Positions 44,248 through 64,000 of a DNA stretch of 64,000 nt are shown in pieces. The position numbers and the translations under genes were made by a program. Source of the DNA: Parcubacteria group bacterium. GTDB taxonomy: Bacteria; Patescibacteriota; Minisyncoccia; UBA10092. Each line of letters opens with the position of its first letter. Position 1 is the first letter of the stretch. The stretch covers positions 187 to 64,186 of the forward strand of contig JACPLW010000001.1 in the NCBI GenBank assembly GCA_016186325.1. Direction: 5' to 3'. The notes beneath the pieces were generated by a model. It made no database searches, had not been told where the DNA came from, and saw only the letters and a list, made by a program, of their open reading frames with translations.

Positions 44248-44268
44248 AAAATTAAATACAATAACAAT

Positions 44269-44384: not shown

Positions 44385-44579
44385 ATGTTTGGACTAGGTA
44401 TCCCCGAAATAACAATAATTTTAATCGCGGCGGTGATTTTCTTTTTTGGCGGGGAAAAACTATCGGAATTGGCGAGGGCGTTGGGCCGGTTTACCGGAGA
44501 ATTTAAAAAAGGCAAAGCGGAAATGGAAAAAGAAATAAAAAAAGTCGAAAAAGAATTTAAATCTGATAAAAAATCGTAG
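44385..44579 (+). CDS. tatA: twin-arginine translocase subunit TatA/E
   Basis: MFGLGIPEITIILIAAVIFFFGGEKLSELARALGRFTGEFKKG is canonical TatA. Confidence 0.75.
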   Translation: MFGLGIPEITIILIAAVIFFFGGEKLSELARALGRFTGEFKKGKAEMEKEIKKVEKEFKSDKKS

Positions 44580-48140: not shown

Positions 48141-48823
48141 AAAACTTAATGATTTACATAAATCCGTTAAAAGAATTTACCGAAGATTATATACGCCTGG
48201 TTAAGGTGCAGATAGATAATTCTATACGAACATGGGATAGAAAAGATATCTTATTGGTAACTAATTTCCCTTATTCCTACGGGGGGATTAATTCAATAGT
48301 GGTGCCCGATGACTTATTTTGTAACCATCGCAAAAGAGCCAGTAAGATAAATGTAATTTGCCACATGATGGATAACTACATGGTAGACGACATGTGCTGG
48401 TTTCATGATTTTGACGCGTATCAAGTTGATATATTTCCGGAAGATATATTAGGAAACAAAGACGCGGCCTTTACCGATTATGGGTTTAATACAATGTGGA
48501 ATACCGGAAGCTTCTTTTTTACCCAGAAAGCAAGGGATATTTTTGAACTTATCCGTCAGACTATGAACGCGAGGGTTGTAAATGAAGAAATAGCCTTAAG
48601 ATGGCTGACTTCTAGAAATATAAACAATATTAACGAACGGTATATAAAACTTAATAATACTTATAACTTGGGGCGAATGAGACACAATGAACTTACTTTT
48701 AAAAAAGCGGATAAACCCATTAAGGTATTCCATTTCCACCCCCGGATGACCCAGCTTTATGAAGAAGTTAAACCGCTTCTCCCAGATCATTTAATCGGAA
48801 TATTTGAAAAACATGGTTACTAA
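48137..48823 (+). CDS. putative glycosyltransferase (GT-A fold, HDFD DxD-like motif)
   Basis: 228 aa. Confidence 0.35.
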   Translation: MKNLMIYINPLKEFTEDYIRLVKVQIDNSIRTWDRKDILLVTNFPYSYGGINSIVVPDDLFCNHRKRASKINVICHMMDNYMVDDMCWFHDFDAYQVDIFPEDILGNKDAAFTDYGFNTMWNTGSFFFTQKARDIFELIRQTMNARVVNEEIALRWLTSRNINNINERYIKLNNTYNLGRMRHNELTFKKADKPIKVFHFHPRMTQLYEEVKPLLPDHLIGIFEKHGY

Positions 48824-48838
48824 AATTCATACTTCACA

Positions 48839-49492
48839 ATGGTAACGCTTCTTATAATGACAAATGGCCGCCGGGAATATCTAGAACGAACTTTGTCCAC
48901 ACTGGGGAAACTTCACGGTAATTTTTCGAGAATTCTGATTCATGACGATTCGGGAGATGAAGATTATCGTGATTGGCTTAAACAATTCGGCTACGAGCTT
49001 GCCACAACCCAGCGAGTCGGATTCACAAAGGCCATAGTTTCCGCATGGCAAAAACTCAAAGAAGATTCCAATGACTGGGTCTTCCACCTGGAAGACGACT
49101 TTATTTTTATGGAGGATATATATATTGACAACATGATTAATGTCATTAAAAATAACGACTATATCAAACAAATCGTGCTTCTCAGACAGCCGATCGGCAA
49201 CCGGGAGCGAAGAAAAGGAGGGATAATAGCTTCGCACCCTGAACGATATGAAGATAAAACTGACGGTACTAATTATTGGATAGAACATCGAGTTAATTAT
49301 TCTACCAATCCTTCTGTTTATAATAAATCTCTTATTTACGAACATCCTTGGCCAGATATGCCATATTCAGAACGTAAATACGGGCGAATGCTATTTAAGG
49401 ATCCAAATGCAAAATGCGCTTATTGGGGCAAAAGCACCGATAAGCCAAGAGTGATACATATAGGAGATGTTAGAAACGGATTTGGTTATTAA
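48839..49492 (+). CDS. GT2-like glycosyltransferase
   Basis: TLLIMTNGRREYLERTL N-terminus and an IHDDSGDED motif. Confidence 0.4.
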   Translation: MVTLLIMTNGRREYLERTLSTLGKLHGNFSRILIHDDSGDEDYRDWLKQFGYELATTQRVGFTKAIVSAWQKLKEDSNDWVFHLEDDFIFMEDIYIDNMINVIKNNDYIKQIVLLRQPIGNRERRKGGIIASHPERYEDKTDGTNYWIEHRVNYSTNPSVYNKSLIYEHPWPDMPYSERKYGRMLFKDPNAKCAYWGKSTDKPRVIHIGDVRNGFGY

Positions 49493-49495
49493 ATT

Positions 49496-50029
49496 ATGAA
49501 GTTTGATAAATACCGGAAAAAAGGGGCCTATCATTGGAAAATGTACGATGAGGACAGATATTACCGCGAGCATGCGCATAGGATAAAGGAGTGGGTAAAA
49601 GAAAAAAATATTCTCGATATCGGCGCCGGGGATGGGAGAATAACTCACCTTCTGGGTATAATAGGAGTAGACGATGAACCGGAGGCGGTAAGGTTAGCAA
49701 TAGAAAAGGGGGCAAATGTGGTGCTTGGCGACGCCTATAATCTGACTTATAAAGATGAAGAGTTTGACTCCGTGCTTTTGGTAGATACGCTGGAACATTT
49801 CGAATTTCCGGAAAAGGCGCTCAAGGAAGCAAGGAGGGTTCTCAAATATTATATCTACATCGCCACGCCGCCGAGAGGCATGCTGGGAAGAATGGATAAA
49901 TATCATTATCAGGAATGGACGGAAGAAGAGCTCGTAAAGTTTGTCGAAGGGCAAGGGTTTACTCTGGAAGGCCGGACGCTTCTTGTTTTGAAAGAGCAGT
50001 GCATCTATGCTAAGTTTAAAAAATTATAA
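49496..50029 (+). CDS. class I SAM-dependent methyltransferase
   Basis: ILDIGAGDGRIT motif I. Confidence 0.55.
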   Translation: MKFDKYRKKGAYHWKMYDEDRYYREHAHRIKEWVKEKNILDIGAGDGRITHLLGIIGVDDEPEAVRLAIEKGANVVLGDAYNLTYKDEEFDSVLLVDTLEHFEFPEKALKEARRVLKYYIYIATPPRGMLGRMDKYHYQEWTEEELVKFVEGQGFTLEGRTLLVLKEQCIYAKFKKL

Positions 50030-50032
50030 CTT

Positions 50033-50929
50033 ATGTTATCTGTAATAATTCCATCAAGAAGCGATGCTTATCTGCAAAAAACTGTAGATGATGTTTTAAA
50101 TAAGGCGAAAGGGGAGGTAGAAGTAGTTGTTGTGCTGGATGGTTATTGGCCCGGTACGATGGTAAGAGATGATAAGCGGGTTATAGTAATACACCACGGA
50201 GAACTACGTTCAAATTTCGGACTTCGAACGAGTGTAAATAGAGGCGTATTGGTTTCCAGAGGAAAATATATAATGAAAATAGACGACCATGTCGCTCTTG
50301 ATGAAGGATTTGATGTAAAGTTGGCCGCTGATTGTAAAGATGATTGGGTTGTTGTTCCAAGATTGTATGCATTAAAAGATGAAGGCTGGACCAAAGATAA
50401 CGCCGGCAGAGCGCCGTTTGACGCGGGATACGTGACATATCCTCTCAAAGATGGCACACTCTCCGGCAAGCCGTGGTCGGGGTGGCTTGAGAGCAGGAAA
50501 GAGATATTGATAGATGATTGCATGCTTTCGGCCGGAGCGTGCTATTTTATGAAACGGGAGCATTGGAATAAACTTGGCCTGCTTGATGAAAAGAATTATG
50601 GCGCCTTTCCATCTTTTGAGAACTTGGAGGTATGCCTCAAGACATGGCTAGGCGGCGGCAGAGTGGTAACAAATAAAAAAACCTGGTGCGCGCATAGATG
50701 GGGAGAAAGGGGACCCAAACATAAAGGTTGGGATTATTCAAATGAACAAGTCAGAAAAATACACGAGAATAGACGTGCGGCAATAAATTATACGAACGAT
50801 TTTTGGTTAAACAACAAATGGCCGGACAGAATCTACGATTTTGACTGGCTTATAGATAAATTCTGGCCGGTTCCCGACTGGCCCGAGAATTGGAAAGAAG
50901 AAATAAGAAAATGGTCACAGCAGCCATAA
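50033..50929 (+). CDS. GT-A-fold glycosyltransferase-like protein, paralog family A (copy 3)
   Basis: MLSVIIPSRSD...VVLDGY with the shared C-terminal motif. Confidence 0.5.
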   Translation: MLSVIIPSRSDAYLQKTVDDVLNKAKGEVEVVVVLDGYWPGTMVRDDKRVIVIHHGELRSNFGLRTSVNRGVLVSRGKYIMKIDDHVALDEGFDVKLAADCKDDWVVVPRLYALKDEGWTKDNAGRAPFDAGYVTYPLKDGTLSGKPWSGWLESRKEILIDDCMLSAGACYFMKREHWNKLGLLDEKNYGAFPSFENLEVCLKTWLGGGRVVTNKKTWCAHRWGERGPKHKGWDYSNEQVRKIHENRRAAINYTNDFWLNNKWPDRIYDFDWLIDKFWPVPDWPENWKEEIRKWSQQP

Positions 50930-50938
50930 TTACAATAT

Positions 50939-51430
50939 ATGGGTAAAAATATAATTGAATGGGGGACTCACTTGCCGCTCTTGGTGAGAATGTTTGATAA
51001 AACCGAAGGCGATGTTTTGGAGATGGGAATGGGGCATTTTTCCACTCCGGTATTAAAATGGCTTTGCGAGATGAGCGGAAGAACTTTGTATTCCTATGAA
51101 AGCAAAATGGATTGGTATGAAAAAGCTGCTAGCGAAAGCAAGCCTTTTCATAAAGTGATTTTTTGCCAAGATTGGGCAAGCGCGGATATAGAACGGCATT
51201 GGGGGCTGGCTTTTATAGACCATAGTCCGATGAGGGAAAGATATATTGACATAAAAAGGCTGGCCAATTATGCCGACATTATTGTCATACATGATACGCA
51301 ACCGCAAAGCGACTGGGTTTATCGCTACAGCAAAATTTTCCCTTTATTCAAATACCGTCTGGATTTTTCTAAATATATTCCCTGGACAAGCGCGGTCAGT
51401 AATTTTATAGATGTTTCAAAACTTGGTTAA
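50939..51430 (+). CDS. hypothetical protein (possible methyltransferase-like)
   Basis: VLEMGMGHFST. Confidence 0.3.
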   Translation: MGKNIIEWGTHLPLLVRMFDKTEGDVLEMGMGHFSTPVLKWLCEMSGRTLYSYESKMDWYEKAASESKPFHKVIFCQDWASADIERHWGLAFIDHSPMRERYIDIKRLANYADIIVIHDTQPQSDWVYRYSKIFPLFKYRLDFSKYIPWTSAVSNFIDVSKLG

Positions 51431-51443
51431 AAAAATTCTCGAT

Positions 51444-52088
51444 ATAAATATGAAAAAAGTCTGTCTTGACCTCCACGATTTTAGTGTTGTGAATAATCGG
51501 CTAGACCTTTTGTTGAAACTTAAGGAGCATTTTCCCGGCTTTAAAATTTCTCTTTTTACCGTCGCTTCGGATATAAGCGCGGATTGGGGGCCGTTTTGTA
51601 TTCGGAAAGATATGCTCAAAGAAATCAAAAAACATCTTGATTGGATACAGATAATTCCGCACGGTTTAACCCATAATAAAGATCTGGAATTCTGCGATTA
51701 CGATATTTTCAAGTATGAAATTATGCCGGCCGTTACAGCTGCTTTTGAAAAGGACGGTCTGCCTTTTCAAAAAGGTTTCTGCGCGCCCCATTGGAGGTGG
51801 AGCGAGGGCGTGGTGAGGGCGCTGGATGAAGAAGGATGGTGGGGAGCGGTGGACAGAAACCAGCCCCAAATGCTTTCTACCAAAAAGTTTTATAAATGGT
51901 CGCATAGTTTGCATGAGCCTTACCATGATTTTAATACTGAAGTTTTAAAACTTCACGGCCATGTTTATGGACTCAAAAATGATTTAGGCAAATGCCTTCC
52001 CGCTTTATTAAAACTGCCCCAATCGGTTGAGTGGCATTTTGTGACTGATTTTTTGGAAGACTTAAATGGGGGACAATTACACGCATGA
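51444..52088 (+). CDS. hypothetical protein
   Basis: The internal ATG (MKKVCLDLHDF) is preferred over the track start at 51411. Confidence 0.3.
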   Translation: MNMKKVCLDLHDFSVVNNRLDLLLKLKEHFPGFKISLFTVASDISADWGPFCIRKDMLKEIKKHLDWIQIIPHGLTHNKDLEFCDYDIFKYEIMPAVTAAFEKDGLPFQKGFCAPHWRWSEGVVRALDEEGWWGAVDRNQPQMLSTKKFYKWSHSLHEPYHDFNTEVLKLHGHVYGLKNDLGKCLPALLKLPQSVEWHFVTDFLEDLNGGQLHA

Positions 52089-52735
52089 AACCAGCGATAA
52101 TATATTACACATCAAACAGGGAAAAAGAAGAGTTTGAAAACAAAATCAGGCAGAATATCCTGAATGTTTGTGGCGGAATACCTATTATTTCCGTATCCCA
52201 AAGGCCAATAGATTTCGGAAAAAATATATGTGTCGGCGAAGTCGGCATTAATGACGATAATTTATTCAGGCAAGTCCAAATTGCTTGTCAGAACACGGAT
52301 GCCGATTACATAATATCTACGGAGTCGGATGTCATTTATCCCAAGGATTACTTCAAATTTATTCCCTCGCGCCTGGATCAAGTTTACAGAAGCGACAACA
52401 TATGGATTTTATACAAAACAAGGCCGGGGTATCATAAAAAAGAATATTCTGAAGGGGGCCAGATAATCGGTAGGGAATTTTATCTATCTATACTTGAAGA
52501 GGCGCTTCAAAATTTGCCCATGTGGAATCATTCCACCTTGTATGTTAACGGAGGTTCCAATAAAATAAGAAATCCTTTCGTAAAATTTAGATGGGAATAT
52601 TTTCATACCGACCCTATCATAAGCGTAAAAACCGGCGATGGGTTAAGGCATTTCGGAGGAATGTCGCATGGGCGCGAAGAAGACCTGCCTATTTGGGGAA
52701 ATCATGAAAAATTAAAAAAAGAATTCTTTATTTAA
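52085..52735 (+). CDS. hypothetical protein, paralog family B (copy 2)
   Basis: Paralog of 47490..48140. Confidence 0.35.
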   Translation: MKPAIIYYTSNREKEEFENKIRQNILNVCGGIPIISVSQRPIDFGKNICVGEVGINDDNLFRQVQIACQNTDADYIISTESDVIYPKDYFKFIPSRLDQVYRSDNIWILYKTRPGYHKKEYSEGGQIIGREFYLSILEEALQNLPMWNHSTLYVNGGSNKIRNPFVKFRWEYFHTDPIISVKTGDGLRHFGGMSHGREEDLPIWGNHEKLKKEFFI

Positions 52736-53341
52736 ATGGATACGCTAAATTTTATTTGCAATCGATATAAAATTGATTTAAACGAAACTTCGTCTCCAAT
52801 TAAAATACCCGTGAGCCGGTGGCATGACATGGGTTGTTTATTCAACGATCTAGGATTTAGAAAAGGAGTTGAATTGGGGGTATATAGAGGGAACTTCACG
52901 AGTAGGATAGCTAAGAAAGCTCCCAATTTGGAGTTGATAGGCGTTGACGCTTGGACTGCTTACCCCGGTTACAATGATTATGACGCAAAGGACTTAGAAA
53001 ATGAGGCCTATGTTGAAGCGATGGCAAGGACCAAAGGATATAAAAATGTAAAATTTATCAAAGGCTGGTCTCTCGATGTCGTTAAGCGGTTTGAGAACGA
53101 GTCGCTGGATTTTGTCTTTATTGACGCAAACCATAATTACGAATATGTGGTTGCCGATATCGCGTCTTGGAGCAAGAAAGTCCGCAAAGGAGGCCTGGTG
53201 TTGGGACATGATTATTTTAAAAATCGCAAGTATAATTTTGGAGTCGTAGAAGCCGTAAATGGCTGGTGTTCCGCTTATGACATAAAACCATTATTTACGT
53301 GGGCGGATAAATGTCCATCGTGGATGTATGTAAAAAGATAA
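52736..53341 (+). CDS. class I SAM-dependent O-methyltransferase (TylF/MycF-like)
   Basis: VELGVYRGNFT and FIDANHNYEYV motifs. Confidence 0.5.
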   Translation: MDTLNFICNRYKIDLNETSSPIKIPVSRWHDMGCLFNDLGFRKGVELGVYRGNFTSRIAKKAPNLELIGVDAWTAYPGYNDYDAKDLENEAYVEAMARTKGYKNVKFIKGWSLDVVKRFENESLDFVFIDANHNYEYVVADIASWSKKVRKGGLVLGHDYFKNRKYNFGVVEAVNGWCSAYDIKPLFTWADKCPSWMYVKR

Positions 53342-53342
53342 T

Positions 53343-54089
53343 ATGAATCCGACTAAAATATCCATTATTATAGCGATTTATAATAGCCATGGAGCTGTGG
53401 CCAGGCAAGTGAAGCATTTCAAGGCGATGAATTTGCCGGATGATATTGAGTTTATTTTTATGGACGATGGCAGCAACCCGCCGCATAAAATTGAGGATTA
53501 CGAACTTTCGAACCTGCGCATTCATTACACTAACGATAAGCGTCCTTGGACCCAAGGTCTGGCCCGCAATGCCGGCGCCAAATTAGCGAAGGGAGAGTAT
53601 CTTTTTTTTACAGATATTGACCACATAATTTCAAAAGAAGCTATTGAAGCGGTTTATGAATTTACGGGCGATAAAATGGTTTTTCCGCGCCACTTCGGAG
53701 TTTTACTGGAAGACGGCGTTCTTTCCCAAGAGCCATCAGTTTTAGAAGAGTATGGCATGGATATGGGAAGGCTGAAAACTGAAAGGGGCTTATACGCCAG
53801 CGTTCACGGGAATACTTATGCTATAAAAAAGACGACATTCGAAAGGATTGGGGGCTATTCGGCCAGATACTGCACTTACGGCCACCACGCTCCTTCAAGA
53901 GGAGGAGAAGACGGTCATTTTAATCATTTGTGGAATCGTTATGCCAAAGCTAACGGTATACAATCAATTTGGGGCCCCAAGATATATATTTTCCCAATCG
54001 GCCAATATCATGTGCGAGGTGATTTAAATCCCAAAGGTTTATTTCATAATTTAAGCCATGATCAGGCCCCGCAGCCTCTAAAAGAATGA
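53343..54089 (+). CDS. GT2-family glycosyltransferase
   Basis: ISIIIAIYNS...IFMDDGSNPP. Confidence 0.5.
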   Translation: MNPTKISIIIAIYNSHGAVARQVKHFKAMNLPDDIEFIFMDDGSNPPHKIEDYELSNLRIHYTNDKRPWTQGLARNAGAKLAKGEYLFFTDIDHIISKEAIEAVYEFTGDKMVFPRHFGVLLEDGVLSQEPSVLEEYGMDMGRLKTERGLYASVHGNTYAIKKTTFERIGGYSARYCTYGHHAPSRGGEDGHFNHLWNRYAKANGIQSIWGPKIYIFPIGQYHVRGDLNPKGLFHNLSHDQAPQPLKE

Positions 54090-54101
54090 AAATCGTAATT
54101 T

Positions 54102-55769
54102 ATGAAATACAACCTAAGCATTCTTATCCCCGCTCGCAACGAAGAATTCCTCAAAAAAACAATTGAGGATATTTTGAGCAACATTGAAGGAAATACGGAA
54201 ATTATCGCCGTCTTAGACGGCTATGAGACAGAACTGCCGGACGATCCAAGATTGAAAGTAATATGCAATCCGGAAAGCAAGGGCCAACGGGCCGCTACCA
54301 ACCAGGCCTGCCGGCTTTCGGAAGCAAAATATATAATGAAATGCGACGCTCATTGCGCTTTTGACAAAGGATTTGACGTCAAGATGACAGCCGAAATGAA
54401 AGATAACTGGACGATGATTCCGGTTATGAGGAATCTCCATGCTTTTAATTGGGTTTGTCCGGACGGGCATAGCAGATACCAAAGTCCTTCCGGCCCGTGC
54501 AAAGAGTGCGGCAAGCCCACAATCAAGGATGTGGTCTGGATAGCGAAAACAAACCCGCAAAGCACCGCTTATTGTTTTGATCAGGAACCGCATTTCCAAT
54601 ATTTCAGAGGATTCAAAAAGCGTCCCGAATATAAAAAAGATTTAGAAATAAATTTAACGGAAACAATGTCTATTCAGGGCTCTTGTTTCATGCTTACTCG
54701 CGACAAATACTGGGAACTAAATATTTGTGACGAATCTTTCGGCTCATGGGGTTCGCAGGGGATTGAAGTGGCATGTAAAACATGGCTTTCAGGAGGCAGG
54801 GTAGTGGTTAATCACAAAACATGGTATGCCCACATGTTCAGGACGCAGGGCGGCGATTTTGGTTTTCCTTATGAGAACCCGGGCAGTAAAGTCCAGCAGG
54901 CGAAGAAAACGGTAAGAGAAATATTTTTTGATAATAAATGGGACAAGCAAATCCGCCCGTTGTCATGGCTTATAGAAAAATTTTGGCCGGTGCCGGGCTG
55001 GACGGAAGAGATGAGAGCAAAAATCAAGGCCTGGCCGCTTCAGAATCAAAATCGTGGAATCAATGTTTCCACGATTTCGCCGGTCGCGCCGACTAAGGGC
55101 ATATTGTATTATTCGGACAACCGGCTAAATATCAAATTTGCCAAAACTATCAAGAAACAGATCGCAAAATCGGGGCTCAATATCACGTCAGTTACATTGA
55201 AGCCTACTAACTTCGGCACCAATTTTGTAGTAAGCGGGGAAAAGGGATATAAAACAATGTATAAGCAGATTCTCAAAGGTTTGGAAGAGATAAAGGAAGA
55301 CATCGTTTTTCTATGCGAGCATGATGTTCTGTACCACCCGAATCATTTCCTCTTTACCCCAACCGACAAAAACACTTTTTACTATAACGGCAACTATTGG
55401 TTTTTAAGACAGAAAGATGGCTTCGCGGTTCATTATAATGCCTCGCCTTTATCGGGGCTGGTGGTTTATCGGGAGGCGGCCATAAAACATTTCAGGGAGC
55501 GGGTAGAAATGATAGAAAAACTTGGCAACGATTATAGGCCTCGCCACATGGGTTTTGAGCCGTTTACGCACGGCAGGATTAGATGGAATTTTTGGTGTAA
55601 TTTTGAAAACTTTATGCCGGCGTTTCCTAATATAGATGTTTCTCACGGAGAAAATTCCACTTGGAAGCGCTGGAATCAAAAAGATTTCAGGCGCAAGCCG
55701 ACATTCTGGGAGGAGGGAAATATAGATACTATCCCCGGTTGGGATAATGTCAGAAAGTTGTTGGGGTAA
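54102..55769 (+). CDS. GT-A-fold glycosyltransferase-like protein, paralog family A (copy 4, with ~250-aa C-terminal extension)
   Basis: LSILIPARNEEFLKKT...AVLDGY. The last ~105 bp are duplicated at 57148-57262. Confidence 0.5.
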   Translation: MKYNLSILIPARNEEFLKKTIEDILSNIEGNTEIIAVLDGYETELPDDPRLKVICNPESKGQRAATNQACRLSEAKYIMKCDAHCAFDKGFDVKMTAEMKDNWTMIPVMRNLHAFNWVCPDGHSRYQSPSGPCKECGKPTIKDVVWIAKTNPQSTAYCFDQEPHFQYFRGFKKRPEYKKDLEINLTETMSIQGSCFMLTRDKYWELNICDESFGSWGSQGIEVACKTWLSGGRVVVNHKTWYAHMFRTQGGDFGFPYENPGSKVQQAKKTVREIFFDNKWDKQIRPLSWLIEKFWPVPGWTEEMRAKIKAWPLQNQNRGINVSTISPVAPTKGILYYSDNRLNIKFAKTIKKQIAKSGLNITSVTLKPTNFGTNFVVSGEKGYKTMYKQILKGLEEIKEDIVFLCEHDVLYHPNHFLFTPTDKNTFYYNGNYWFLRQKDGFAVHYNASPLSGLVVYREAAIKHFRERVEMIEKLGNDYRPRHMGFEPFTHGRIRWNFWCNFENFMPAFPNIDVSHGENSTWKRWNQKDFRRKPTFWEEGNIDTIPGWDNVRKLLG

Positions 55770-55845
55770 GTAAATACTCCTTATCCACAGCTAAAACTTG
55801 TGTTTTTTCGAAATACCGATTACAATTGAACTGGAGGTAACACCC

Positions 55846-56451
55846 ATGGTAGCTTCCAGTCCACATATGCAAAAATCAGAAATATTGAATATTTTAAGGG
55901 CGAACAACACAGTCTTCACATTCAAGGAGATTCTTTTGGCATCCGAAGGAACAAACACCTTGTTATTAAAAAGAAGGTTGAATTATTATGTCAAAAAAGG
56001 TGAATTATACTCAATCCGGAGAGGATTTTATGCCAAGGACAAAAACTACGATAAGCTTGAATTAGCGACTAAGATTTACACCCCTTCCTATATAAGTTTT
56101 GAGACGGTTTTAAGACAGGCCGGTATGATATTTCAGTATTATGAGAGAATTTTTATTGCCTCATACATTACCCGAGAAATTACTGCCGATAATCAGACCT
56201 ATGAATATAGGAGAGTAAAAGATACTATTTTGACCAATTCTGTTGGCATAGAAAAGAAAGAATATTACTCCATTGCTTCTCCCGAGCGCGCATTTCTTGA
56301 TGTGTTGTATGTTAGTAAGGATTATTATTTTGATAATTTGCGTTCTTTAAATTGGGATAAAGTGTTTGAACTGCTTCCTATTTACGCAAATAAACGAATG
56401 GAAAAAGTTGTAAATAAAATATTCAATGGCGCTCAACATCGCAATTCATAA
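55846..56451 (+). CDS. type IV toxin-antitoxin system AbiEi-family antitoxin
   Basis: ~200 aa with a wHTH N-terminus. RBS GGAGGT lies 8 nt upstream of the ATG at 55846, and the 3' end overlaps the downstream toxin gene. Confidence 0.5.
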   Translation: MVASSPHMQKSEILNILRANNTVFTFKEILLASEGTNTLLLKRRLNYYVKKGELYSIRRGFYAKDKNYDKLELATKIYTPSYISFETVLRQAGMIFQYYERIFIASYITREITADNQTYEYRRVKDTILTNSVGIEKKEYYSIASPERAFLDVLYVSKDYYFDNLRSLNWDKVFELLPIYANKRMEKVVNKIFNGAQHRNS

Positions 56452-57142
56452 GAATATCATGATTAAGATATTGAAAGATATTTACTCCGATGCTACTATC
56501 GGTCCCATTTTAGCTTTCAAGGGTGGGACGGCGGCATATTTATTTTACGAATTAGATCGTTTTTCGGTGGACTTGGATTTTGACCTCTTGGATGCTGAAA
56601 AAGAAGATTATGTCTTTGAAAGAGTCAGAAATATTTTAGAGAAATATGGCACATTGAAAGAGGCCAGCAAGAAAAGATTTAATCTGTTTTACTTGCTCTC
56701 ATATTCTGAAAAAATTAAAGGTGGACAGAATATTAAGCTTGAAATAAATCGGAGGGATTTTAATTCTAAATATGAAGTAAGGTCGTATCTAGGTATTCCC
56801 ATGAAAATAATGGTGCGAGAAGATATGGCGGCTCACAAGATAGTCGCGATGTTTGAGAGATTTGGCACTACGAATCGCGACATCTTTGATGTTTGGTTTT
56901 TCTTGCAGAATGACTGGCCGGTCAACAAAGAGATTATAGAAAAACGAACCGGCATGTTGTTCAGGGAACTTTTAGAAAAATGTATTGAACTGCTTGAAAA
57001 GATGGACAACGGCAGCATATTATCTGGTATGGGAGAGCTTTTGACTCCAAAACAAAAAGATTGGGCCAGGGCAAAGCTTCGAACTGACACTATCTTTCTT
57101 TTAAAATTAAGATTAGAAAACGAAAAATCAATGAAATTCTAG
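56426..57142 (+). CDS. AbiEii/AbiGii-family nucleotidyltransferase toxin (DUF1814)
   Basis: FKGGTAAYLFY...RFSVDLDFD matches the AbiEii GGTA...R.S.DLDF nucleotidyltransferase motif. Confidence 0.55.
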   Translation: MALNIAIHKNIMIKILKDIYSDATIGPILAFKGGTAAYLFYELDRFSVDLDFDLLDAEKEDYVFERVRNILEKYGTLKEASKKRFNLFYLLSYSEKIKGGQNIKLEINRRDFNSKYEVRSYLGIPMKIMVREDMAAHKIVAMFERFGTTNRDIFDVWFFLQNDWPVNKEIIEKRTGMLFRELLEKCIELLEKMDNGSILSGMGELLTPKQKDWARAKLRTDTIFLLKLRLENEKSMKF

Positions 57143-57293: not shown

Positions 57294-57347
57294 ATATTGG
57301 CCTACTTAAATTGTTTATTATTAACATGTAACATAATGGTAAAAAAC

Positions 57348-58409
57348 ATGCAGAAAAGTAAAAAAATAAAAATCAAATTATTCCAGCCGTATGTTTCTCC
57401 GCTGGCCAGAAAAATGGTCCAAAAAGTTTTATCGGGAATCTGGATAGCCGAGGGCCCGATGGTAAAAGAATTTGAAAAAGAATTTGCCAAAAAATTCAAT
57501 CTGAAAAACGTTGCGGCAGTTAACTCCGGCACCAGCGCCTTAGAGCTGGCTTACGAACTCGCGGATATCAAATCGGGCGATGAGGTAATCACACCGGTTT
57601 TAACTTGCGTGATTACCAATGTTCCTTTGGTAAGGCGGGGAGCGAAAATAATTTTTGCCGATATAGATTACGATTTGAATATGAGTATTGAAGATGTCAA
57701 GAAAAAAATAACCCCAAGAACCAAGGCGATAGTTTTTATGCATTTCGGAGGAAATAACCGCGGGCTGAAAGAATTGATTAAAATATGCAAAGAACGGAAG
57801 ATTTGCCTCATTGAAGACGCCGCCCAAGCGGTCGGTTCCGATTTTTGGGGGAAGGCTGATTTTACCGCCGTCTCGCTTCAAGCGATTAAAATGATAACTT
57901 CCGGGGACGGAGGATTTTTGATATGTAAAAATAAAAAAGATTGCGACAAGGCCAAGCGGCTGCGCTGGTTCGGATATGACAGGGACAAAAGAGCAAAACT
58001 GGGAGATATTGATTTAAAAGAAGCCGGATACAAATATCAAATGTGCGATGTCGCGGCTTCTATAGGTTTGGGCAATTTGTTGTCTATTGATCCTGTTCTA
58101 GCCCATGGAAAACGCCTACAAAAAATTTATAAAAAATACGGACTGAAACCCCATGCCTGGGTATCGGTGGGTTTCACTGATAATTATAAAAAATTAAAAG
58201 AACTTTACGGCCGGGAGGGGATAGAAATAGGAAAAAATCATTTTCGTAACGATAAATACACTTTGTTCAAAAAATTTAGAACCCCTTTACCAATAATGAA
58301 CGAATTAGAGCATAGGTATTTTATTGTGCCAAGCCACTATGCGGTACCGGAAAAAATTGCCCATAAAATCGGCCGGATTTTTGTGAACAGTAAATTAAAT
58401 TTAAAATGA
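57348..58409 (+). CDS. DegT/DnrJ/EryC1/StrS-family PLP-dependent sugar aminotransferase
   Basis: EGPMVKEFEKEFAKKFN...AAVNSGTSALELA...PVLTCV. The internal ATG at 57348 is preferred. Confidence 0.65.
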   Translation: MQKSKKIKIKLFQPYVSPLARKMVQKVLSGIWIAEGPMVKEFEKEFAKKFNLKNVAAVNSGTSALELAYELADIKSGDEVITPVLTCVITNVPLVRRGAKIIFADIDYDLNMSIEDVKKKITPRTKAIVFMHFGGNNRGLKELIKICKERKICLIEDAAQAVGSDFWGKADFTAVSLQAIKMITSGDGGFLICKNKKDCDKAKRLRWFGYDRDKRAKLGDIDLKEAGYKYQMCDVAASIGLGNLLSIDPVLAHGKRLQKIYKKYGLKPHAWVSVGFTDNYKKLKELYGREGIEIGKNHFRNDKYTLFKKFRTPLPIMNELEHRYFIVPSHYAVPEKIAHKIGRIFVNSKLNLK

Positions 58410-58410: not shown

Positions 58411-58800
58411 ATGACTGATTTAAATAATGAAAATCCGCCATGGTATTCCTCGTATGAGAAAAATAATTACGGAGATTTGTTTTACGCGCTGATGCGCATT
58501 TATAAACCCAAGAAAGTTGTTGAATTGGGTACTAAAGCTGGATACAGCGCTTACCATATAGCAAGGGGGCTTAAGGATAATAGAAGAGGCACTCTGGACT
58601 GTTATGACTTGTGGGAGAGGTATGAATTTAAATCGGTACCTAAATCGGTTGCCGAGAAAAATTTAAAAAAATTTAAAGATATCATAAAACTTAAACAGCG
58701 CGACGCGATTGGAGTAAATAAGTTATATAAAAAAATTGATATTTTACATGTTGATGTCAGTAATGAGGGCGGAATTTTAGAAAAAATAATACCGAACTAG
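58411..58800 (+). CDS. small class I methyltransferase-like protein
   Basis: VVELGTKAGYSAYHIARGL. Confidence 0.35.
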   Translation: MTDLNNENPPWYSSYEKNNYGDLFYALMRIYKPKKVVELGTKAGYSAYHIARGLKDNRRGTLDCYDLWERYEFKSVPKSVAEKNLKKFKDIIKLKQRDAIGVNKLYKKIDILHVDVSNEGGILEKIIPN

Positions 58801-59016: not shown

Positions 59017-60141
59017 ATGAATAAAATTATTACAAATCAAGAAAAGAACGCCCCGATTTCTAACGGGGTGAAATTAAATTTAGGTTGCGGTAAAGAGCAT
59101 AAAGAGGGATATATCAATATTGATATTCAAGAACCTTGCGATTTGAGGCATGATTTAAGAACCCCTTGGCCGTTTGACGACGGTTCGGTTGATGAAATAT
59201 TCACCGAAGATACTGTCCGCATTTTTTCGCTCAAAGAATGGGAGAAGGTTAAAAAAGAGATGGCCAGGGTTTTAAAACCCGGCGGCAAGCTGGAGATTAT
59301 CTTCCCGGACTTTGAATACATACTTAATGCTTTTTTAAAAAATGAAGACGGAAGAAGATGGAGTTGGTGGTGGCGGGTAATCTTTGGCTCTCAAGAGAAC
59401 GACGAATACCGTGATATTTGCAAAAACAGTTTTACTTATAAAAAATTATTGGCCGAGTTATTTAAGAAAGGGATGATAAACTTTAAAAAACAGCGATTAG
59501 AAGAACAACCGGGCTATATCCATTTAACTTGTCATAAACAGCCAGTTGACTATAAGATGCCGCATTCCCTAAGAGTTTTAATCGGAGTGCCAATTCATAT
59601 AAATTATCCTATAGAAAAATGCTTGGGATATATCTCTAAATTGAAATACCGGGCAGACCTTTTAATGGTAGATACTTCCTCTGGCCTTGGCTATCTGGAG
59701 AAAGTGAATGGGTACTGCGCTAAATACGGGATAAAGAATTATAAGATAGAACATTTGGAAATTAATCAAGAACAAGGAGAGGATGAAAGAATCGGCCGCT
59801 CAAGGGAGATAATCCGGCAATATGTTCTTTCCCATAATTACGACGCATGGTTTTCCGTTGAATATGACAACATCCTGCCGGCTAATGCCTTGGACAAACT
59901 GGTCGGGTTGATGGAAGAAGGCAATTTTATGATGGTATTCGTCCCCGCATTGGCAAATAAAATTCTTTGTGAACCCACTACTAATTTTGGTTGCGCTTTA
60001 ATCAGGCGGGAATGCTTTGAAAAGCATGGTTTTTTGTCTGAATATGATGCGATCAAATGTTGGCATGGAGTGGAGGTTTTTTTCAAAAAACGTTTCATTA
60101 AAAGCAGAAACTATTCCGACGATATTTACGAAATGGTTTAA
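59017..60141 (+). CDS. two-domain protein: SAM methyltransferase (LNLGCG motif) fused to paralog family C domain
   Basis: The first 17 codons (MNKIITNQEKNAPISNG) derive from a degenerate copy of the IR element. The true start is probably the GTG at 59068, giving (M)KLNLGCG. Confidence 0.45.
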   Translation: MNKIITNQEKNAPISNGVKLNLGCGKEHKEGYINIDIQEPCDLRHDLRTPWPFDDGSVDEIFTEDTVRIFSLKEWEKVKKEMARVLKPGGKLEIIFPDFEYILNAFLKNEDGRRWSWWWRVIFGSQENDEYRDICKNSFTYKKLLAELFKKGMINFKKQRLEEQPGYIHLTCHKQPVDYKMPHSLRVLIGVPIHINYPIEKCLGYISKLKYRADLLMVDTSSGLGYLEKVNGYCAKYGIKNYKIEHLEINQEQGEDERIGRSREIIRQYVLSHNYDAWFSVEYDNILPANALDKLVGLMEEGNFMMVFVPALANKILCEPTTNFGCALIRRECFEKHGFLSEYDAIKCWHGVEVFFKKRFIKSRNYSDDIYEMV

Positions 60142-60187: not shown

Positions 60188-60808
60188 ATGAAAATCCTTA
60201 TCGGCACGCCAATCCATATTTGTAAGGACTATTGCATGGAGCGATGGCTCCAAAACGTAGTCGAACTCCGTCTAAAATATCCGGCCGATTTGCTTTTGGT
60301 TGATAATTCCCCAGGGCTTGAATATGTGGAGAAAATGAAGGGGTACTGTGCGAAATATGGAATAAAAAATTATAAGATTGAACACATAGAACTTCCCCAG
60401 GAAAAGGTTTATCACGAAAAAATAGCCCGCTCAAGGGAGATAATCAGACAAGAAATGCTTGCCCATGATTATGATGCTTGGTTTACATGGGAATCCGACC
60501 AGCTCATACCAACCAATACTTTGGGCGAACTGGTTAGGATAATGAAGGGTGGAAATTTTATGATGATTAATCCCAATAACTGGGCAAGGGGGGTTCCCGA
60601 TCAGCCCAATACCGACCACGGCCTTTCTTTAATTAAAAGAGAAGTTCTGGAAAAGCATGGTTTCCTGCTTGAGTTTGGCACCGATCCTGAGATGCCAAAA
60701 AACTGGGACGAAAGCGATGCTTGGTTTAAGAAACGCGTTCTAAGGGATGGAGGCAATTTTATTGAACTTTATGGCGTTATTGAACCAGTTTATCACTTAA
60801 ACGAATAA
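60188..60808 (+). CDS. paralog family C protein (small GT-A-like, uncharacterised), copy 2
   Basis: MKILIGTPIHICKDYCMERW...LLLVDNSPGLEYVEKMKGYCAKYGIKNYKIEH. Confidence 0.4.
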   Translation: MKILIGTPIHICKDYCMERWLQNVVELRLKYPADLLLVDNSPGLEYVEKMKGYCAKYGIKNYKIEHIELPQEKVYHEKIARSREIIRQEMLAHDYDAWFTWESDQLIPTNTLGELVRIMKGGNFMMINPNNWARGVPDQPNTDHGLSLIKREVLEKHGFLLEFGTDPEMPKNWDESDAWFKKRVLRDGGNFIELYGVIEPVYHLNE

Positions 60809-60811: not shown

Positions 60812-61618
60812 ATGCAACTTGGAATAACCACAATTCAACGCGACAGAGCTCCATGGATAAAAGAATGGGTTGCATTTCATTATTTAGTCGGCTTCAGGAA
60901 ATTTTATATCTATACTCACATGTGCTTGGATAACACGGAAGAGATTCTTAATGGTTTAAAAAATAAATTTGACATTACAATAATTCCGGTGGGGCCAGAG
61001 GTTGAAACGGCCCAAATGACGTCTTATCAGCATTCCTGCGACAATTTCCTGAAAGAAGTGGATTACATGGCGTTCATTGATAGTGATGAATTTTTATTCC
61101 CCACAGCTCATGATTCTATGGAAACTGCGCTGGCTGAATTTAACGATAAAAAAATATCCGCCCTAGGTGTTTATTGGTCGTGTTTTGGAAGCAGTGGATA
61201 TATTGAAGAACCGCCCGGTTTGATTATTGAAAATTATAGACGCAGAGCCGATGGCAATTTTGAGGCCAACCACCATGTAAAAAGCATTGTCCGCGGAAGG
61301 CAAGCCGCCTCATCCGTTCAAGTTGGTGAGAACGCGCATTTATTCAAAACTCCTCTTGGCACATTTGATGAGAATCTAAGGCCGATTACCTGCGGTCTTG
61401 AGATAAACTATGAGCCCACATATGAAAAATTTCGTATTAACCATTATATTTGCCAAAGCCGTTCATATTTTTTAAATTTCAAAAAAATTAACGTGGCGAT
61501 TTTCAAGGAAAGAATTAAACCGGAATCCTGGTGGGAGGAACATGATATAAATGATGTTTTAGACAATTCAACGGACAAATTTATCGGGCCATTAAAAAAT
61601 ATTTTAAATTCCATATGA
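60812..61618 (+). CDS. putative glycosyltransferase (GT-A fold, FIDSDEF DxD motif)
   Basis: 268 aa. Confidence 0.4.
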   Translation: MQLGITTIQRDRAPWIKEWVAFHYLVGFRKFYIYTHMCLDNTEEILNGLKNKFDITIIPVGPEVETAQMTSYQHSCDNFLKEVDYMAFIDSDEFLFPTAHDSMETALAEFNDKKISALGVYWSCFGSSGYIEEPPGLIIENYRRRADGNFEANHHVKSIVRGRQAASSVQVGENAHLFKTPLGTFDENLRPITCGLEINYEPTYEKFRINHYICQSRSYFLNFKKINVAIFKERIKPESWWEEHDINDVLDNSTDKFIGPLKNILNSI

Positions 61619-61689
61619 ATCCCGTTAGAAATAAAAAATCAGAGATTTTTGCCGACACGTCTGAAGCGAGTCGGATTTCTAACGGGATG
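61615..61689 (+). repeat. start-codon-embedded inverted-repeat element, copy D (arms 61620-61632 and 61675-61687)
   Basis: The leading ATG overlaps the upstream TGA stop as ATGA. The 3' arm ends on the ATG at 61687 (MKILIGTPIH). The ORF track reads through the element in frame. Confidence 0.6.
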
Positions 61690-62301
61690 AAAATCCTCAT
61701 CGGCACGCCAATCCACGAATGCAAGGATTATTGCATGGAAAGATGGCTGGAGAATGTTGCCAAACTTCAGCAACAGACCCCTGCCAATTTATTTTTGGTA
61801 GATAATTCGCCCGGGTTGGATTATGTGGAGAAAATCAAAAATTACTGTGCGAAATATGGAATTACGAATTACAAAATAGAACATTTGGAAATCAATCAGG
61901 CGCAAGGAGCGGACGAGAGGATCGGCCGTTCAAGAGAAATAATCAGGCAGGAAATTCTTTCCCATGATTATGACGCTTGGTTCTCCTGGGAATGCGACCA
62001 AATTATACCGGCGAATGCCTTGGATAAATTGATTGATATAATGAAAATAGGGGATTACGCGATGGTTAGCCACGGTTCATGGTCAAGAAAAAATCCCGGT
62101 AGTCCCGAAAATGATTTAGGATGCGCTTTAATAAAAGGAGTATGCTTAGAAAAATACAGTTTCTTGCTTCAAGAGTACTGGGACCTGACTCGGTCTTGGC
62201 ATGCCGGCGCAAGATGGTTTAAGCATCGTTTACTTAAAGGCGGAGACAATTATATTGAGGTCTATGGAGTAGTCGCTCCCATATACCATTTAAACGAATG
62301 A
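61687..62301 (+). CDS. paralog family C protein, copy 3
   Basis: MKILIGTPIHECKDYCMERW. The start is reassigned from 61615 to 61687. Confidence 0.45.
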   Translation: MKILIGTPIHECKDYCMERWLENVAKLQQQTPANLFLVDNSPGLDYVEKIKNYCAKYGITNYKIEHLEINQAQGADERIGRSREIIRQEILSHDYDAWFSWECDQIIPANALDKLIDIMKIGDYAMVSHGSWSRKNPGSPENDLGCALIKGVCLEKYSFLLQEYWDLTRSWHAGARWFKHRLLKGGDNYIEVYGVVAPIYHLNE

Positions 62302-62909
62302 AAATACTTATCGGCACACCAATTCATATCTGCAAAGATTATGCTATGGAAAGATGGCTTAAAAGCGTATCCGAGCTTACTTACCCTCACGATTTTATGA
62401 TGGTTGATAATTCGCCTGACGAATCATATCTGGAAACGGTTAAGGGCTATTGCGCAAAATACGGCATCACCAACTATAAGCTGGTACATGTTGACGTTGA
62501 CCAAAAGTTGGGCACTGACGGAAAGTTATCCTTTGCCAGAGAAATAATAAGGCAGGAGATTTTAACAAAAGGATATGATGCCTGGTGTACTTTGGAGTGC
62601 GACATCATTGCTCCGCCAAACGCTCTTGATGAATTAGTCAGATTAATAGCCGATTGCATGGAAATTAATCACTCCTATCCATCCAGAATAAATCCAAAGG
62701 AGATGATGAGCGGTTTCGGGCTGTCTTTAGTTAAAAGAGAAGCGCTTGAGAAATATGAGTTTATCGGCCAGTACGGCGATTGCGACCCGGAGATGCCCGG
62801 TATTTTTCAGGGAGGAGAAAGCTGGTTTATTACAAGGGTTATTAGAAATGGCGGTAGTTGTATTGATGTTTCCGGGGTTATCAAGCCAATTTTTCATCTG
62901 GATAAATAG
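62298..62909 (+). CDS. paralog family C protein, copy 4
   Basis: MKILIGTPIHICKDYAMERW. Confidence 0.4.
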   Translation: MKILIGTPIHICKDYAMERWLKSVSELTYPHDFMMVDNSPDESYLETVKGYCAKYGITNYKLVHVDVDQKLGTDGKLSFAREIIRQEILTKGYDAWCTLECDIIAPPNALDELVRLIADCMEINHSYPSRINPKEMMSGFGLSLVKREALEKYEFIGQYGDCDPEMPGIFQGGESWFITRVIRNGGSCIDVSGVIKPIFHLDK

Positions 62910-62922: not shown

Positions 62923-64000
62923 ATGTCTCAATATTATTTCACAAACGACGCGCCTACCGGAAACGACCCTTCAACTTGGGGTTGGAAGGGAGCATGGGAT
63001 GACGGCACCACCACTGCGGTTACCAAACGGCTTGGAGAGGCCATTGGAGCGGGGGGCTTTACATCAATAGGCACCGACGAAGGGACGAGTTCTGTTGCTG
63101 ATTTTGATATTGCTCTGGGCCGGTGGGTCTCCGACCCATTAAGTAATGCGGTCTCATTTGCCACCAATGATACCTGGCAGGCAATTTTTGGTGTGAAGGA
63201 ACAAAACCTCGCGGCTAATTTTGTTTCGCATGTTCATATCTGGATTTCCAATGGCGATGCCGACTCGGTCAAGTCAACATTGGTCACCGATGCTATTGCC
63301 AGTGCTACGCCTAATGATGCCGAGGAATGGCCAACAACGGCTTCTGGCACAGGCAACTTGTTTGCTAATAGCACCACCAACGCTCTTGCCGATGGGCTTT
63401 CGGCCGCCGCGGGAGACCGTATCATTGTTGAAGTCGGTTATCGAGCTCTAAATACCATAACCACTTCTTATGCCGGCACGATGTATTATGGCGGCGCTAC
63501 TGGCGCCGATTTGCAAGACGACAATGCGGGAGGCACCAATCCAGGATCAAACCCGGGTTGGATATCGTTTACTACAACTATACCAAGCCCTTCAGAAAGT
63601 CCTTCTGTCAGTCCTTCTTCTTCACCATCACTTAGTCCATCATCTTCCGAATCACCGTCCCTTTCGCCCTCGGCGTCGCTAAGCCCCTCAAGTTCCGTTT
63701 CTCCGTCTGAAGTGCCGCAATCTTCTTCCGAATCACCTTCGCTTTCACCGTCATCATCTGAATCACCGTCGCTAAGCCCTTCAGCATCTTTATCTCCATC
63801 CTCATCCGTTAGTCCTTCACTCTCGCCATCCAGTTCGCAGTCGCCATCGCTTAGTCCATCAGCTTCTCTATCGCCCTCAAGCTCCGCGTCGCCGTCTCTT
63901 AGCCCCTCAAGTTCTGAATCACCGTCACTCTCGCCATCAGCTTCTCTGTCTCCGTCGGCTTCTGAATCGCCATCGCTTTCACCATCGTCTAGCGAATCGC
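62923..64000 (+). CDS. Ser/Pro-rich tandem-repeat protein (3'-truncated by window end): ~220-aa N-terminal domain followed by SPSLSPSxSxSPS repeats
   Basis: Frame +1 from the ATG at 62923 is open to the window end (>358 codons) and absent from the ORF track. From ~63590 the DNA is a tandem 9/18/36-nt periodic repeat encoding ...SESPSLSPSASLSPSSSVSPS... Confidence 0.6.
   Translation, partial: MSQYYFTNDAPTGNDPSTWGWKGAWDDGTTTAVTKRLGEAIGAGGFTSIGTDEGTSSVADFDIALGRWVSDPLSNAVSFATNDTWQAIFGVKEQNLAANFVSHVHIWISNGDADSVKSTLVTDAIASATPNDAEEWPTTASGTGNLFANSTTNALADGLSAAAGDRIIVEVGYRALNTITTSYAGTMYYGGATGADLQDDNAGGTNPGSNPGWISFTTTIPSPSESPSVSPSSSPSLSPSSSESPSLSPSASLSPSSSVSPSEVPQSSSESPSLSPSSSESPSLSPSASLSPSSSVSPSLSPSSSQSPSLSPSASLSPSSSASPSLSPSSSESPSLSPSASLSPSASESPSLSPSSSES

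Follow-up and report, generated by a model that had tools for sequence, protein, structure and literature searches.

We examined a 64,000-nucleotide stretch of DNA (hereafter the window; contig JACPLW010000001.1, positions 187 to 64,186, assembly GCA_016186325.1) from a Parcubacteria group bacterium, a member of the candidate phyla radiation (CPR). An earlier note, made from the letters of the window, had pointed to a long serine- and proline-rich open reading frame (ORF) at its 3' end, downstream of a series of sugar enzymes. This ORF is the 5' part of what we call the fibre gene. The window is bacterial chromosome, encoding GroEL, two penicillin-binding proteins, IMPDH, Ddl, a Mur ligase, DnaB, CysRS, GrpE-DnaK-DnaJ, TatC and TatA; an origin in a huge phage is ruled out by the penicillin-binding proteins, Ddl, Mur ligase and TatC. 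The features of the fibre gene, with lengths in nucleotides (nt) or amino acids (aa), are as follows.

62923..64000, + strand: fibre gene, 5' part, 359 codons, cut by the window end (open frame; orthologues start at the same Met; complete relatives of ~880-1,362 aa)
62923..63579, + strand: N-terminal jelly-roll domain (N-domain), aa 1-219 (AlphaFold2 fold, family homology)
63580..64000, + strand: (x-Ser)n repeat with units SPSL and SPS(S/A)S(E/L/V/Q/A), truncated by the window end (Ser and Pro counts, periods, Tandem Repeats Finder)

Translation from the ATG at 62923 runs for 359 codons without a stop through base 64000, as the earlier note had read it, and the frame is missing from the program-made ORF list for the reason presumed there: the lister omits ORFs that run off the end. 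Because an in-frame TAG (62911-62913) precedes the frame, 62923 is the first possible ATG. Orthologues of the protein share this start (MS(K/Q)(Y/F)Y(F/L)(T/S)N), which lies 13 nt past the stop of the preceding gene. We estimate the chance of an open frame of 359 codons at the window's composition as ~3e-8, that is, (61/64)^359. The short ORFs listed in this stretch (63221-63451 and others), previously described as sub-frames, in fact lie in other frames or on the opposite strand and overlap the fibre ORF; a minus-strand frame (DGESDGDSE...) is likewise open over the repeat. The protein begins MSQYYFTNDAPTGNDPSTWGW... and has no hydrophobic segment there; throughout the family the conserved domain sets in at residue 2-5. 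The signal-peptide check that had been proposed found none in the translated 359 aa, which also contain no twin-arginine motif and have no match in Pfam. Given the open 359-codon frame, N-domain orthologues at 42-78% identity, complete relatives and agreeing assemblies (both described below), the fibre ORF is almost certainly a real gene with a conserved cluster.

The globular region of about 220 aa described earlier as rich in Thr, Ala and Gly corresponds to residues 1-219 (Thr 13%, Ala 13%, Gly 12%). Residues 220-359 comprise 78 Ser and 28 Pro of 139. Here the tandem array of SPSLSPS type was borne out: serine occupies each second residue over 139 aa, with a single phase break at EVPQ, and the places in between are taken in turn by Pro and by one of L/S/A/E/V/Q, which yields units of SPSL and SPS(S/A)S(x). 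The strongest repeat periods are 30, 48 and 78 nt (10, 16 and 26 aa), and a 6-nt sub-period accounts for weaker signals at 12, 18, 24 and 36 nt. The 9/18/36-nt periodicity claimed before thus stands in part, with 18 and 36 nt visible as signals of the 6-nt sub-period and the 9-nt period absent from the period analysis of the repeat DNA. Tandem Repeats Finder reported a period of 30 with 68-76% matches between copies, and six of six Ser codons (TCN and AGY) are used in the repeat. The use of all six codons, together with DNA copies that are just 68-76% alike, indicates that the repeat is kept by selection at the protein level and not by recent slippage. The DNA is also locally GC-rich, as had been remarked (0.47 in 62001-64000 versus 0.35-0.44 elsewhere in the window), a rise explained by second codon positions that are 81% GC in the repeat.

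At most ~590 nt of the source contig (64,587 bp) lie beyond the window end, so the fibre gene very probably runs off the contig. Positions 57166-63768 were reproduced with ≤3 mismatches in six independent Logan assemblies (runs SRR12113383, 384, 420, 422, 424 and 430), all six of which end in or before the repeat, a region that short reads left unresolved. Their agreement shows that the junction between domain and repeat is genuine and not a chimera. Exact-DNA scans of genome and metagenome collections for an extension of the contig gave no match, and look-ups through neighbouring proteins returned just short Logan contigs ending in the repeat.

Full-length relatives and the N-terminal domain

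Relatives with a serine repeat were recovered by pattern scans of metagenomes and GTDB genomes; two loci, L023 (Roizmanbacteria) and L025 (the second Levybacteria locus), were reached through proteins of the A3 family, an orphan family encoded immediately upstream of the fibre gene and described below. Homologues of the fibre were found in Yanofskybacteria (L027, 77% identity), Woesebacteria (L030) and Levybacteria (L032), in Saccharibacteria (L028, >1,700 aa, open over the entire contig) and in a metagenome-assembled genome (MAG) labelled Gammaproteobacteria (L029). The most informative genes are these.

L015, 4349-7342: fibre relative of 997 aa, complete
L023, 11887-15750: fibre relative of 1,287 aa, complete
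L030, 9995-14083: fibre relative of 1,362 aa, complete
L025, 13706-16954: fibre relative of ≥1,082 aa with two globular inserts, broken by a run of N
L086, 13059-15698: fibre relative of ~880 aa including a scaffold gap; closest orthologue, N-domain 77% identical, on a Rifle aquifer scaffold

The relatives share a common plan: after the N-domain come SPSx or SASLSPSA repeats that extend over 650-1,000+ aa, and a short domain forms the C-terminus; their lengths are approximate, given scaffold gaps and possible repeat collapse. A stop just past the window end that would leave a tiny repeat region, raised earlier as a possible outcome, is very unlikely in light of the 650-1,000+ aa of repeat held by full-length relatives. 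In L015, L023 and L030, a single frame of 997-1,362 codons extends from the N-domain through the repeats into a conserved C-terminal domain, and the minus-strand frames are fragmented into ORFs of ≤143 aa. The repeat sequence diverges strongly even among close relatives, with the alternating-serine rule retained.

The C-terminal domain of the three Microgenomates genes (L015, L023 and L030) is a conserved segment of ~45 aa, IPSWN..GRP..PK.G..GFN.QT..LE(Y/F)..G..W, and the C-terminus of L086 carries three (I/V)KT(I/V)NG(V/L) units. Neither motif was present in the other N-domain family members that were fetched. The relatives' C-terminal domain had no sequence match in the PDB and a DUF7360 match below threshold. 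No signal peptide, LPXTG motif or hydrophobic tail was found in the complete relatives (L015, L023, L030 and L086).

The stored gene calls for L023 (11887-15750) and L086 (13059-15698) omit the fibre gene and give short minus-strand ORFs rich in Asp, Gly and Glu in its place; this class of gene is therefore under-annotated. Directly 3' of the closest orthologue, L086 15734-16573 encodes a protein that runs off the contig, with a membrane or signal segment at its N-terminus and a tail rich in Pro and Thr. This protein might be the fibre's partner in the membrane.

The earlier note had not recognized the globular region as a member of a large family that mostly forms the N-terminus of proteins resembling phage fibres. 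AlphaFold2 predicted a β-sandwich jelly roll for the N-domain when given a 26-sequence alignment (pLDDT 87.8, pTM 0.89; with 5 sequences, pLDDT 31), and solved viral jelly rolls were among the nearest structures, at lower scores. The best predicted viral structures (Foldseek against BFVD, E 9.5e-13) were N-terminal domains of uncultured Caudovirales proteins that also bear collagen triple-helix repeats, S74 intramolecular-chaperone, pectin-lyase or glycine-rich domains, which marks these matches as fibre- or spike-type proteins. An exhaustive HMMER search placed the N-domain in a family that counts ~1,300 representative clusters (E≤1e-3), of which 134 reach E≤1e-30. Of 152 listed family proteins, which range from ~200 to 2,184 aa, most have the domain starting at residue 1-13, and some have tandem copies. 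What follows the domain is variable: LamG, a glycine-rich domain, Ala/Thr-rich repeats or β-strand repeats. Matches outside the CPR (Alphaproteobacteria, Streptomyces and others) have the N-domain without the serine repeat.

The N-domain had no match in Pfam or PHROGs, and neither it nor a consensus-like family member matched any of 50,697 deposited phage genomes by tblastn. The family is present in at least 34 IMG/VR contigs of ~9-110 kb (confirmed by tblastn), whose members are ≤40% identical to the N-domain of the fibre. An N-domain gene adjoins a portal gene in L009 and stands directly after a large terminase gene in L085, and the L011 homologue is encoded beside a phage-type glycosyltransferase. 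Judged by homology and neighbourhood, the N-domain is a common, hitherto undescribed N-terminal module of phage fibre-like proteins.

Two further observations concern this family. The IMG/VR contigs L083 (5673-10085) and L085 (9881-14146), with a GC content of 0.53-0.55, encode proteins of 1,421-1,471 aa that combine a distant N-domain (25% identity) with SPSxSPS repeats and globular inserts; the large terminase encoded directly before the fibre-like gene in L085 shares 47% identity with its counterpart in Streptomyces phage TurkishDelight. Short members (~257-277 aa) in MAG contigs of Alphaproteobacteria and related lineages (L034-L037, L039-L042, L048-L050 and L053) form a distinct subfamily with the shared tail ...ETVRRxTSxNLRLSQLAVEVVRRNGSPP..GQGGMLIVVAG.

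The enzyme island and its conserved gene order

The 17.2 kb upstream of the fibre gene (45758-62909) encode GT2 and GT92-like enzymes, several S-adenosylmethionine (SAM) methyltransferases and a DegT aminotransferase, so that Pfam confirmed the run of about 17 kb of sugar enzymes that had been described at this position. We refer to this region as the island; its genes, listed below, are co-directional with the fibre gene, which closes the cluster.

62298..62909, + strand: A3 copy 4, a ~200-aa orphan family (paralogue analysis; 95% identical to the same-position gene in L012, L027 and L086; no Pfam or PDB match)
61615..62301, + strand: A3 copy 3 (identical to MBI2634998.1, HYW79_00385)
60812..61618, + strand: GT92/GT2_4-like glycosyltransferase (Pfam E 7.7e-15, 1.4e-13; orthologues at 59-68% in the same position in L023, L025, L029 and L032)
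60188..60808, + strand: A3 copy 2 (paralogue analysis)
59017..60141, + strand: fusion of a Methyltransf_11 SAM methyltransferase with A3 copy 1, the A3 part at ~59569-60141 (Pfam; residues 185-374 are A3 by BLASTP)
58411..58800, + strand: Methyltransf_24 methyltransferase (Pfam E 4.2e-9; orthologues at 77-78% in L023, L025 and L032)
57297..58409, + strand: DegT/DnrJ/EryC1-type sugar aminotransferase (Pfam E 4.4e-59; kept in L023, L025, L029, L030, L032 and L088)
55798..57142, + strand: AbiEi/AbiEii toxin-antitoxin pair (AbiEii firm, E 9.6e-20; AbiEi weak, E 0.0069, below the Pfam cut-off)
45758..55769, + strand: GT2 glycosyltransferases, methyltransferases and small unnamed families, soluble (Pfam, paralogue groups)

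No protein encoded at 45060-63579 has a hydrophobic segment of 19 residues, and the island is therefore without an initiating phosphoglycosyl transferase, a flippase or ABC exporter, a polymerase or an oligosaccharyltransferase. The Pfam families of the machinery for lipid-linked polysaccharides (initiating transferase, flippase/ABC exporter, polymerase/ligase) were likewise absent from the island. None of 26 island proteins matched SecA, SecY or the GT-B families (Glycos_transf_1, Glyco_trans_1_4) in Pfam at E≤0.01. The same families are absent from the recorded Pfam matches of L023, L025, L086 and L088; the rest of the genome could hold them.

The four A3 genes or gene parts of the window (59569-60141, 60188-60808, 61615-62301 and 62298-62909) are paralogues with 39-59% identity. 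Databases hold at least 546 members of the A3 family, and all source names among the 120 best matches are those of CPR lineages (Parcubacteria, Levy-, Blackburn- or Roizmanbacteria); a pattern scan did not find the family in IMG/VR. Searches at the family level gave no significant match in Pfam or among PDB sequences, and the A3 profile did not match the window's own GT2 families or locally built glycosyltransferase profiles significantly (hhalign). When 127 members were scanned singly against Pfam, five matched Anp1/GT62 (best E 5e-6) and three matched GT2 (best E 0.0049); apart from these, just the fused methyltransferase domain gave recurring matches. The alignment has near-invariant V-D-N-S and E-x-D motifs, which in our reading are placed like the nucleotide-binding and DXD motifs of GT-A enzymes. 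By these motifs and matches, the A3 proteins are likely divergent GT-A glycosyltransferases.

The fibre gene directly follows A3 copies (≤70 nt) in 11 loci from Parcubacteria and Microgenomates. These represent at least nine distinct gene clusters, L012/L013 and L027 being near-identical to L086. An A3 gene ends ≤70 nt before the fibre in the window, L012/13, L014, L015, L016, L023, L025, L027, L029, L031, L032, L086 and L088. Tandem copies number 2-6 per locus, with four in the window, five in L015, six in L023, five to six in L025 and L032 and at least two in L088; L031 has one copy. Arrays also occur in L027, L029 and L086, and the same was seen on the short contigs L012-L014 and L016. The window has the order DegT, Methyltransf_24, Methyltransf_11-A3, A3, GT92, A3, A3, fibre in common with Roizman- and Levybacteria, at 40-78% identity, and the Methyltransf_11-A3 fusion recurs in L023, L086 and database homologues. 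Clusters of the relatives additionally hold genes of NDP-sugar epimerase/dehydratase and sugar C-methyltransferase type. In two variants that lack A3 (L017 and L030), the slot beside the fibre is filled by another family of ~255 aa (...AEIIISA(P/V)D(N/D)S...), with a SAM methyltransferase before it. The content of the island varies among close relatives, L027 and L086 being without AbiE and GT92 and with other genes, as is expected for a variable glycan. On the evidence of gene order, the link between the serine-repeat gene and the sugar enzymes upstream of it is conserved and not accidental.

Two gene families within the island deserve mention in their own right. The AbiE pair lies mid-island, and a pair with 39-40% identity lies upstream of DegT and the fibre in Woesebacteria (L030) and also occurs in L018/L019. 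A second unnamed paralogous family of ~216 aa (27-35% identity, ...YYTSNRE...) is encoded at 47490-48140, at 52085-52735 and in the C-terminal half of 54102-55769; it is twice stand-alone and once fused behind a GT2 domain, and has relatives in L017, L023 and L027.

Proposed glycosylation and export, and rival explanations

Serine-rich repeat proteins (SRRPs) are glycosylated in the cytoplasm by soluble glycosyltransferases and then exported (PMC6973325, PMC7948813). We compared the fibre with the Gram-positive examples Fap1, GspB, PsrP and SraP and with their loci of glycosyltransferase and accessory-Sec genes. The likeness lies in very long (Ser-x)n dipeptide repeats (139 aa here, 650-1,000+ aa in the relatives), in a gene position beside several soluble glycosyltransferases, and in the combination of a globular domain with an extended stalk. 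In contrast to SRRPs, the fibre has no atypical signal peptide of ~90 aa; the locus shows no secA2, secY2 or asp genes; the complete relatives have no LPXTG anchor; and none of the 26 island proteins matches GT-B at E≤0.01, as homologues of GtfA and GtfB should. The fibre also differs in having Pro at every other 'x' position of its repeat and a phage-type jelly roll at its extreme N-terminus as the globular domain, and its host belongs to the CPR, not to the Firmicutes. Four of the five features that define SRRPs (signal peptide, LPXTG, accessory Sec and GtfA/B) were thus missing and one, the (Ser-x)n repeat, was found, and the class assignment made in the earlier note did not hold. Its other suggestion, an S-layer glycoprotein, fared no better: there is no signal peptide and no S-layer anchor, and the 359 aa have no Pfam match. 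Of the proposed protein-glycosylation or surface-fibre system, the link to sugar enzymes was borne out, being conserved in the 11 loci. Membership among collagen-like fibres was rejected, as the protein contains no collagen G-X-Y repeats.

Phage fibre- and spike-like proteins are a second point of reference. They have a homologous N-domain and the same layout, in which a fibrous or repetitive middle joins the N-terminal domain to a distal part that varies, and two viral contigs share the SPS-type repeat. The CPR genes, however, are chromosomal and stand behind an enzyme island among housekeeping genes, not in a head or tail module; their identity to the viral members is ≤40%, and A3 was not detected in viral contigs by the pattern scan.

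In BclA of the Bacillus exosporium, the fibrils of Mimivirus, and the glycosylated capsid and tail proteins of mycobacteriophages, glycosylated fibres or virion proteins are assembled inside the cell. These proteins have no signal peptide and a repetitive Ser/Thr region, and they are served by dedicated soluble glycosyltransferases and by genes for unusual amino and methyl sugars, including a DegT-type aminotransferase. The CPR fibre would resemble them in logic only, as the components are not homologous and there are no G-X-Y repeats here. To our knowledge, CPR bacteria have neither sporulation nor virus factories. The cluster would be a dedicated serine-repeat glycoprotein system built from different parts.

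Upon the gene, its architecture, the fold of its N-domain, the gene order and the island devoid of membrane proteins, all established here, we build a reading in which the A3 proteins would act as glycosyltransferases, the repeat would be glycosylated, and the product would be exported to serve at the cell surface. Working in the cytoplasm, the island enzymes would make amino and methylated sugars and attach them one step at a time to the serines of the repeat (O-glycosylation), a route that would require no lipid carrier, flippase or oligosaccharyltransferase. Densely glycosylated, mucin-like Ser/Pro regions are extended and protease-resistant, and the glycans may likewise make the repeat a stiff, protease-resistant, mucin-like rod that spaces the end domains apart. 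The product would most likely be a surface or attachment fibre of episymbiotic cells; by analogy with phage fibres, the N-domain could serve as the anchor and the C-terminus as the distal tip. Cytoplasmic O-glycosylation appears the most economical route because it draws together the conserved adjacency, the alternating-serine design and the enzymes for amino and methyl sugars, and a lipid-linked polysaccharide route is disfavoured because its membrane steps are missing from the island. Overall, we lean, with some reserve, towards a real giant fibre gene whose repeat serines are probably glycosylated by the enzymes of the adjacent island, an argument from sequence and analogy. Several points weigh against it. 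Glycosylation is argued from gene order and the analogy to SRRPs; the A3 family as a whole matches no Pfam family or PDB sequence significantly, nor do profile comparisons with the window's glycosyltransferase families reach significance; a signal peptide and a twin-arginine motif are missing from the fibre and a transporter from the island, so that a surface location is presumed; the N-domain family is mainly viral, with two viral contigs combining N-domain and SPS repeats and one of them (L085) a terminase neighbour, which gives a virion-type role some weight; and the 3' end of this gene lies outside the window.

An alternative that we regard as unlikely keeps island and protein apart: the island would make a polysaccharide or glycolipid of the envelope, unrelated to the protein, and the Ser/Pro repeat would carry no modification and serve as a linker, either flexible or spanning the wall. 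Their adjacency would only reflect a shared surface island. Clusters of GT2, DegT and methyltransferase genes are generally typical of polysaccharide loci, content that varies as in L027 and L086 (without AbiE and GT92) recalls O-antigen loci, and Pro/Ser-rich linkers are commonplace; yet 17 kb without a membrane protein leave no initiating transferase, flippase, polymerase or ligase for such a product. Moreover, two CPR superphyla contribute to the at least nine distinct clusters in which the fibre and A3 are direct neighbours, and a strict alternation of serine over hundreds of residues goes beyond what a linker needs and resembles known O-glycosylated repeats. Still less probable, in our judgement, is a phage structural fibre, from a prophage, a remnant or a phage-derived particle, with an island that decorates virions. 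None of the ten window proteins scanned matched a PHROG, and the gene has an enzyme island upstream of it in a bacterial chromosome with housekeeping genes. Downstream of the complete CPR fibre genes lie tat genes or genes for thioredoxin reductase, Rho or an M23 peptidase, and no terminase, portal or capsid was among the flanking Pfam matches in the three complete loci, where several flanking genes were unmatched. A3 was not found in IMG/VR (pattern scan). Against this stand the at least 34 IMG/VR contigs with the N-domain family, the portal and large terminase neighbours in L009 and L085, the N-domain and SPSxSPS repeats shared by L083 and L085, the phage-type glycosyltransferase beside the L011 homologue, and the absence of a signal peptide, which suits intracellular assembly. 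A weak Phage_cement_2-like ORF at 45060-45551 (E 3.2e-4, sub-threshold) points the same way, but it is unmatched in deposited phages.

That the open frame is a chance product of low-complexity repeat DNA or an assembly artefact has a negligible probability. The contig seems to end in the repeat just 587 nt past the window, short-read assemblies break there, the minus-strand frame is open as well, and in the stored annotation of L023 and L086 the repeat holds ORFs on the minus strand. These facts are outweighed by an N-domain conserved in ~1,300 clusters, a single frame of 997-1,362 codons from N-domain to C-terminal domain in three loci, a high diversity of synonymous Ser codons and the agreement of six independent assemblies. 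For the gene, an artefact is effectively excluded; the true number of repeats is still subject to assembly error.

Our confidence in any specific export route for the fibre protein is low. A pair of Tat genes is found upstream of the island.

43453..44579, + strand: tatC (43453-44247) and tatA (44385-44579) (Pfam TatC E 2.5e-39; TatA by inspection and Pfam TatA_B_E matches to L023 genes)

Tat genes adjoin the cluster in four loci: the window, where they precede the island, and L015, L023 and L030, where they lie 0.3-2.3 kb downstream of the fibre. In the latter three, a free-standing ORF of 65-66 aa directly upstream of tatA-tatA-tatC (L015 8930-9127, L023 15774-15974 and L030 14280-14480) holds the fibre's C-terminal domain of ~45 aa (I.SW..RP..PK.G.FGFN.QT..LEY..G..W). 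When the six copies of the domain are compared with a profile made of these same six, E values run from 1e-26 to 4e-29, a circular result; the informative points are that the profile matched nothing else in any fetched locus or the window and that the domain can be recognized by eye in the six sequences. This Tat-adjacent ORF may reflect either conserved synteny of the Microgenomates backbone or a functional tie. We consider it a tentative and rather doubtful possibility that CPR bacteria of several phyla domesticated a phage fibre module into a cellular, heavily O-glycosylated giant fibre with tandem glycosyltransferases and a non-classical export that might be tied to Tat; if true, episymbionts would have a new attachment organelle and a new export or anchoring mechanism.

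Host attachment by CPR bacteria (Patescibacteria) is largely unexplained, type IV pili being the sole well-studied device (PMC9894109, PMC12206443). The cluster described here occurs in Parcubacteria and Microgenomates, and a fibre homologue with the same repeat occurs in a Saccharibacteria MAG. Our literature search for serine-rich glycoproteins of CPR bacteria, for these proteins or for the repeat peptides found no description. The combination of a giant serine-repeat protein with a large set of sugar enzymes that varies between loci is the mark of a surface structure subject to diversifying selection. Such a gene is easily missed, as assemblies break in the repeat and stored calls are sometimes on the wrong strand, and both the N-domain and the ~200-aa A3 family are without a Pfam or PHROG entry. 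If confirmed, the system would provide a candidate CPR adhesin or coat, a new glycosyltransferase family and a phage fibre module reused by cells. Should one of the rival explanations hold, the fibre gene would still be a useful correction to annotation.

Three other ORFs of the window are recorded here. The 163-aa ORF at 45060-45551, mentioned above for its Phage_cement_2 (DUF2190) match below the Pfam cut-off, seems to continue in another frame (45485-45661), suggesting a frameshift or pseudogene. The joined protein (45060-45661) had no match in deposited phages or related loci, and we did not use it as a sign of a prophage. In the housekeeping part of the window, an 874-aa ORF (14723-17347) matched no Pfam family above threshold and gave weak helix-turn-helix matches (E 0.015-0.03). 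After tatA, a 76-aa ORF at 44709-44939 carries a twin-arginine signal (MDENRRKFLKIILIGGGAIL...).

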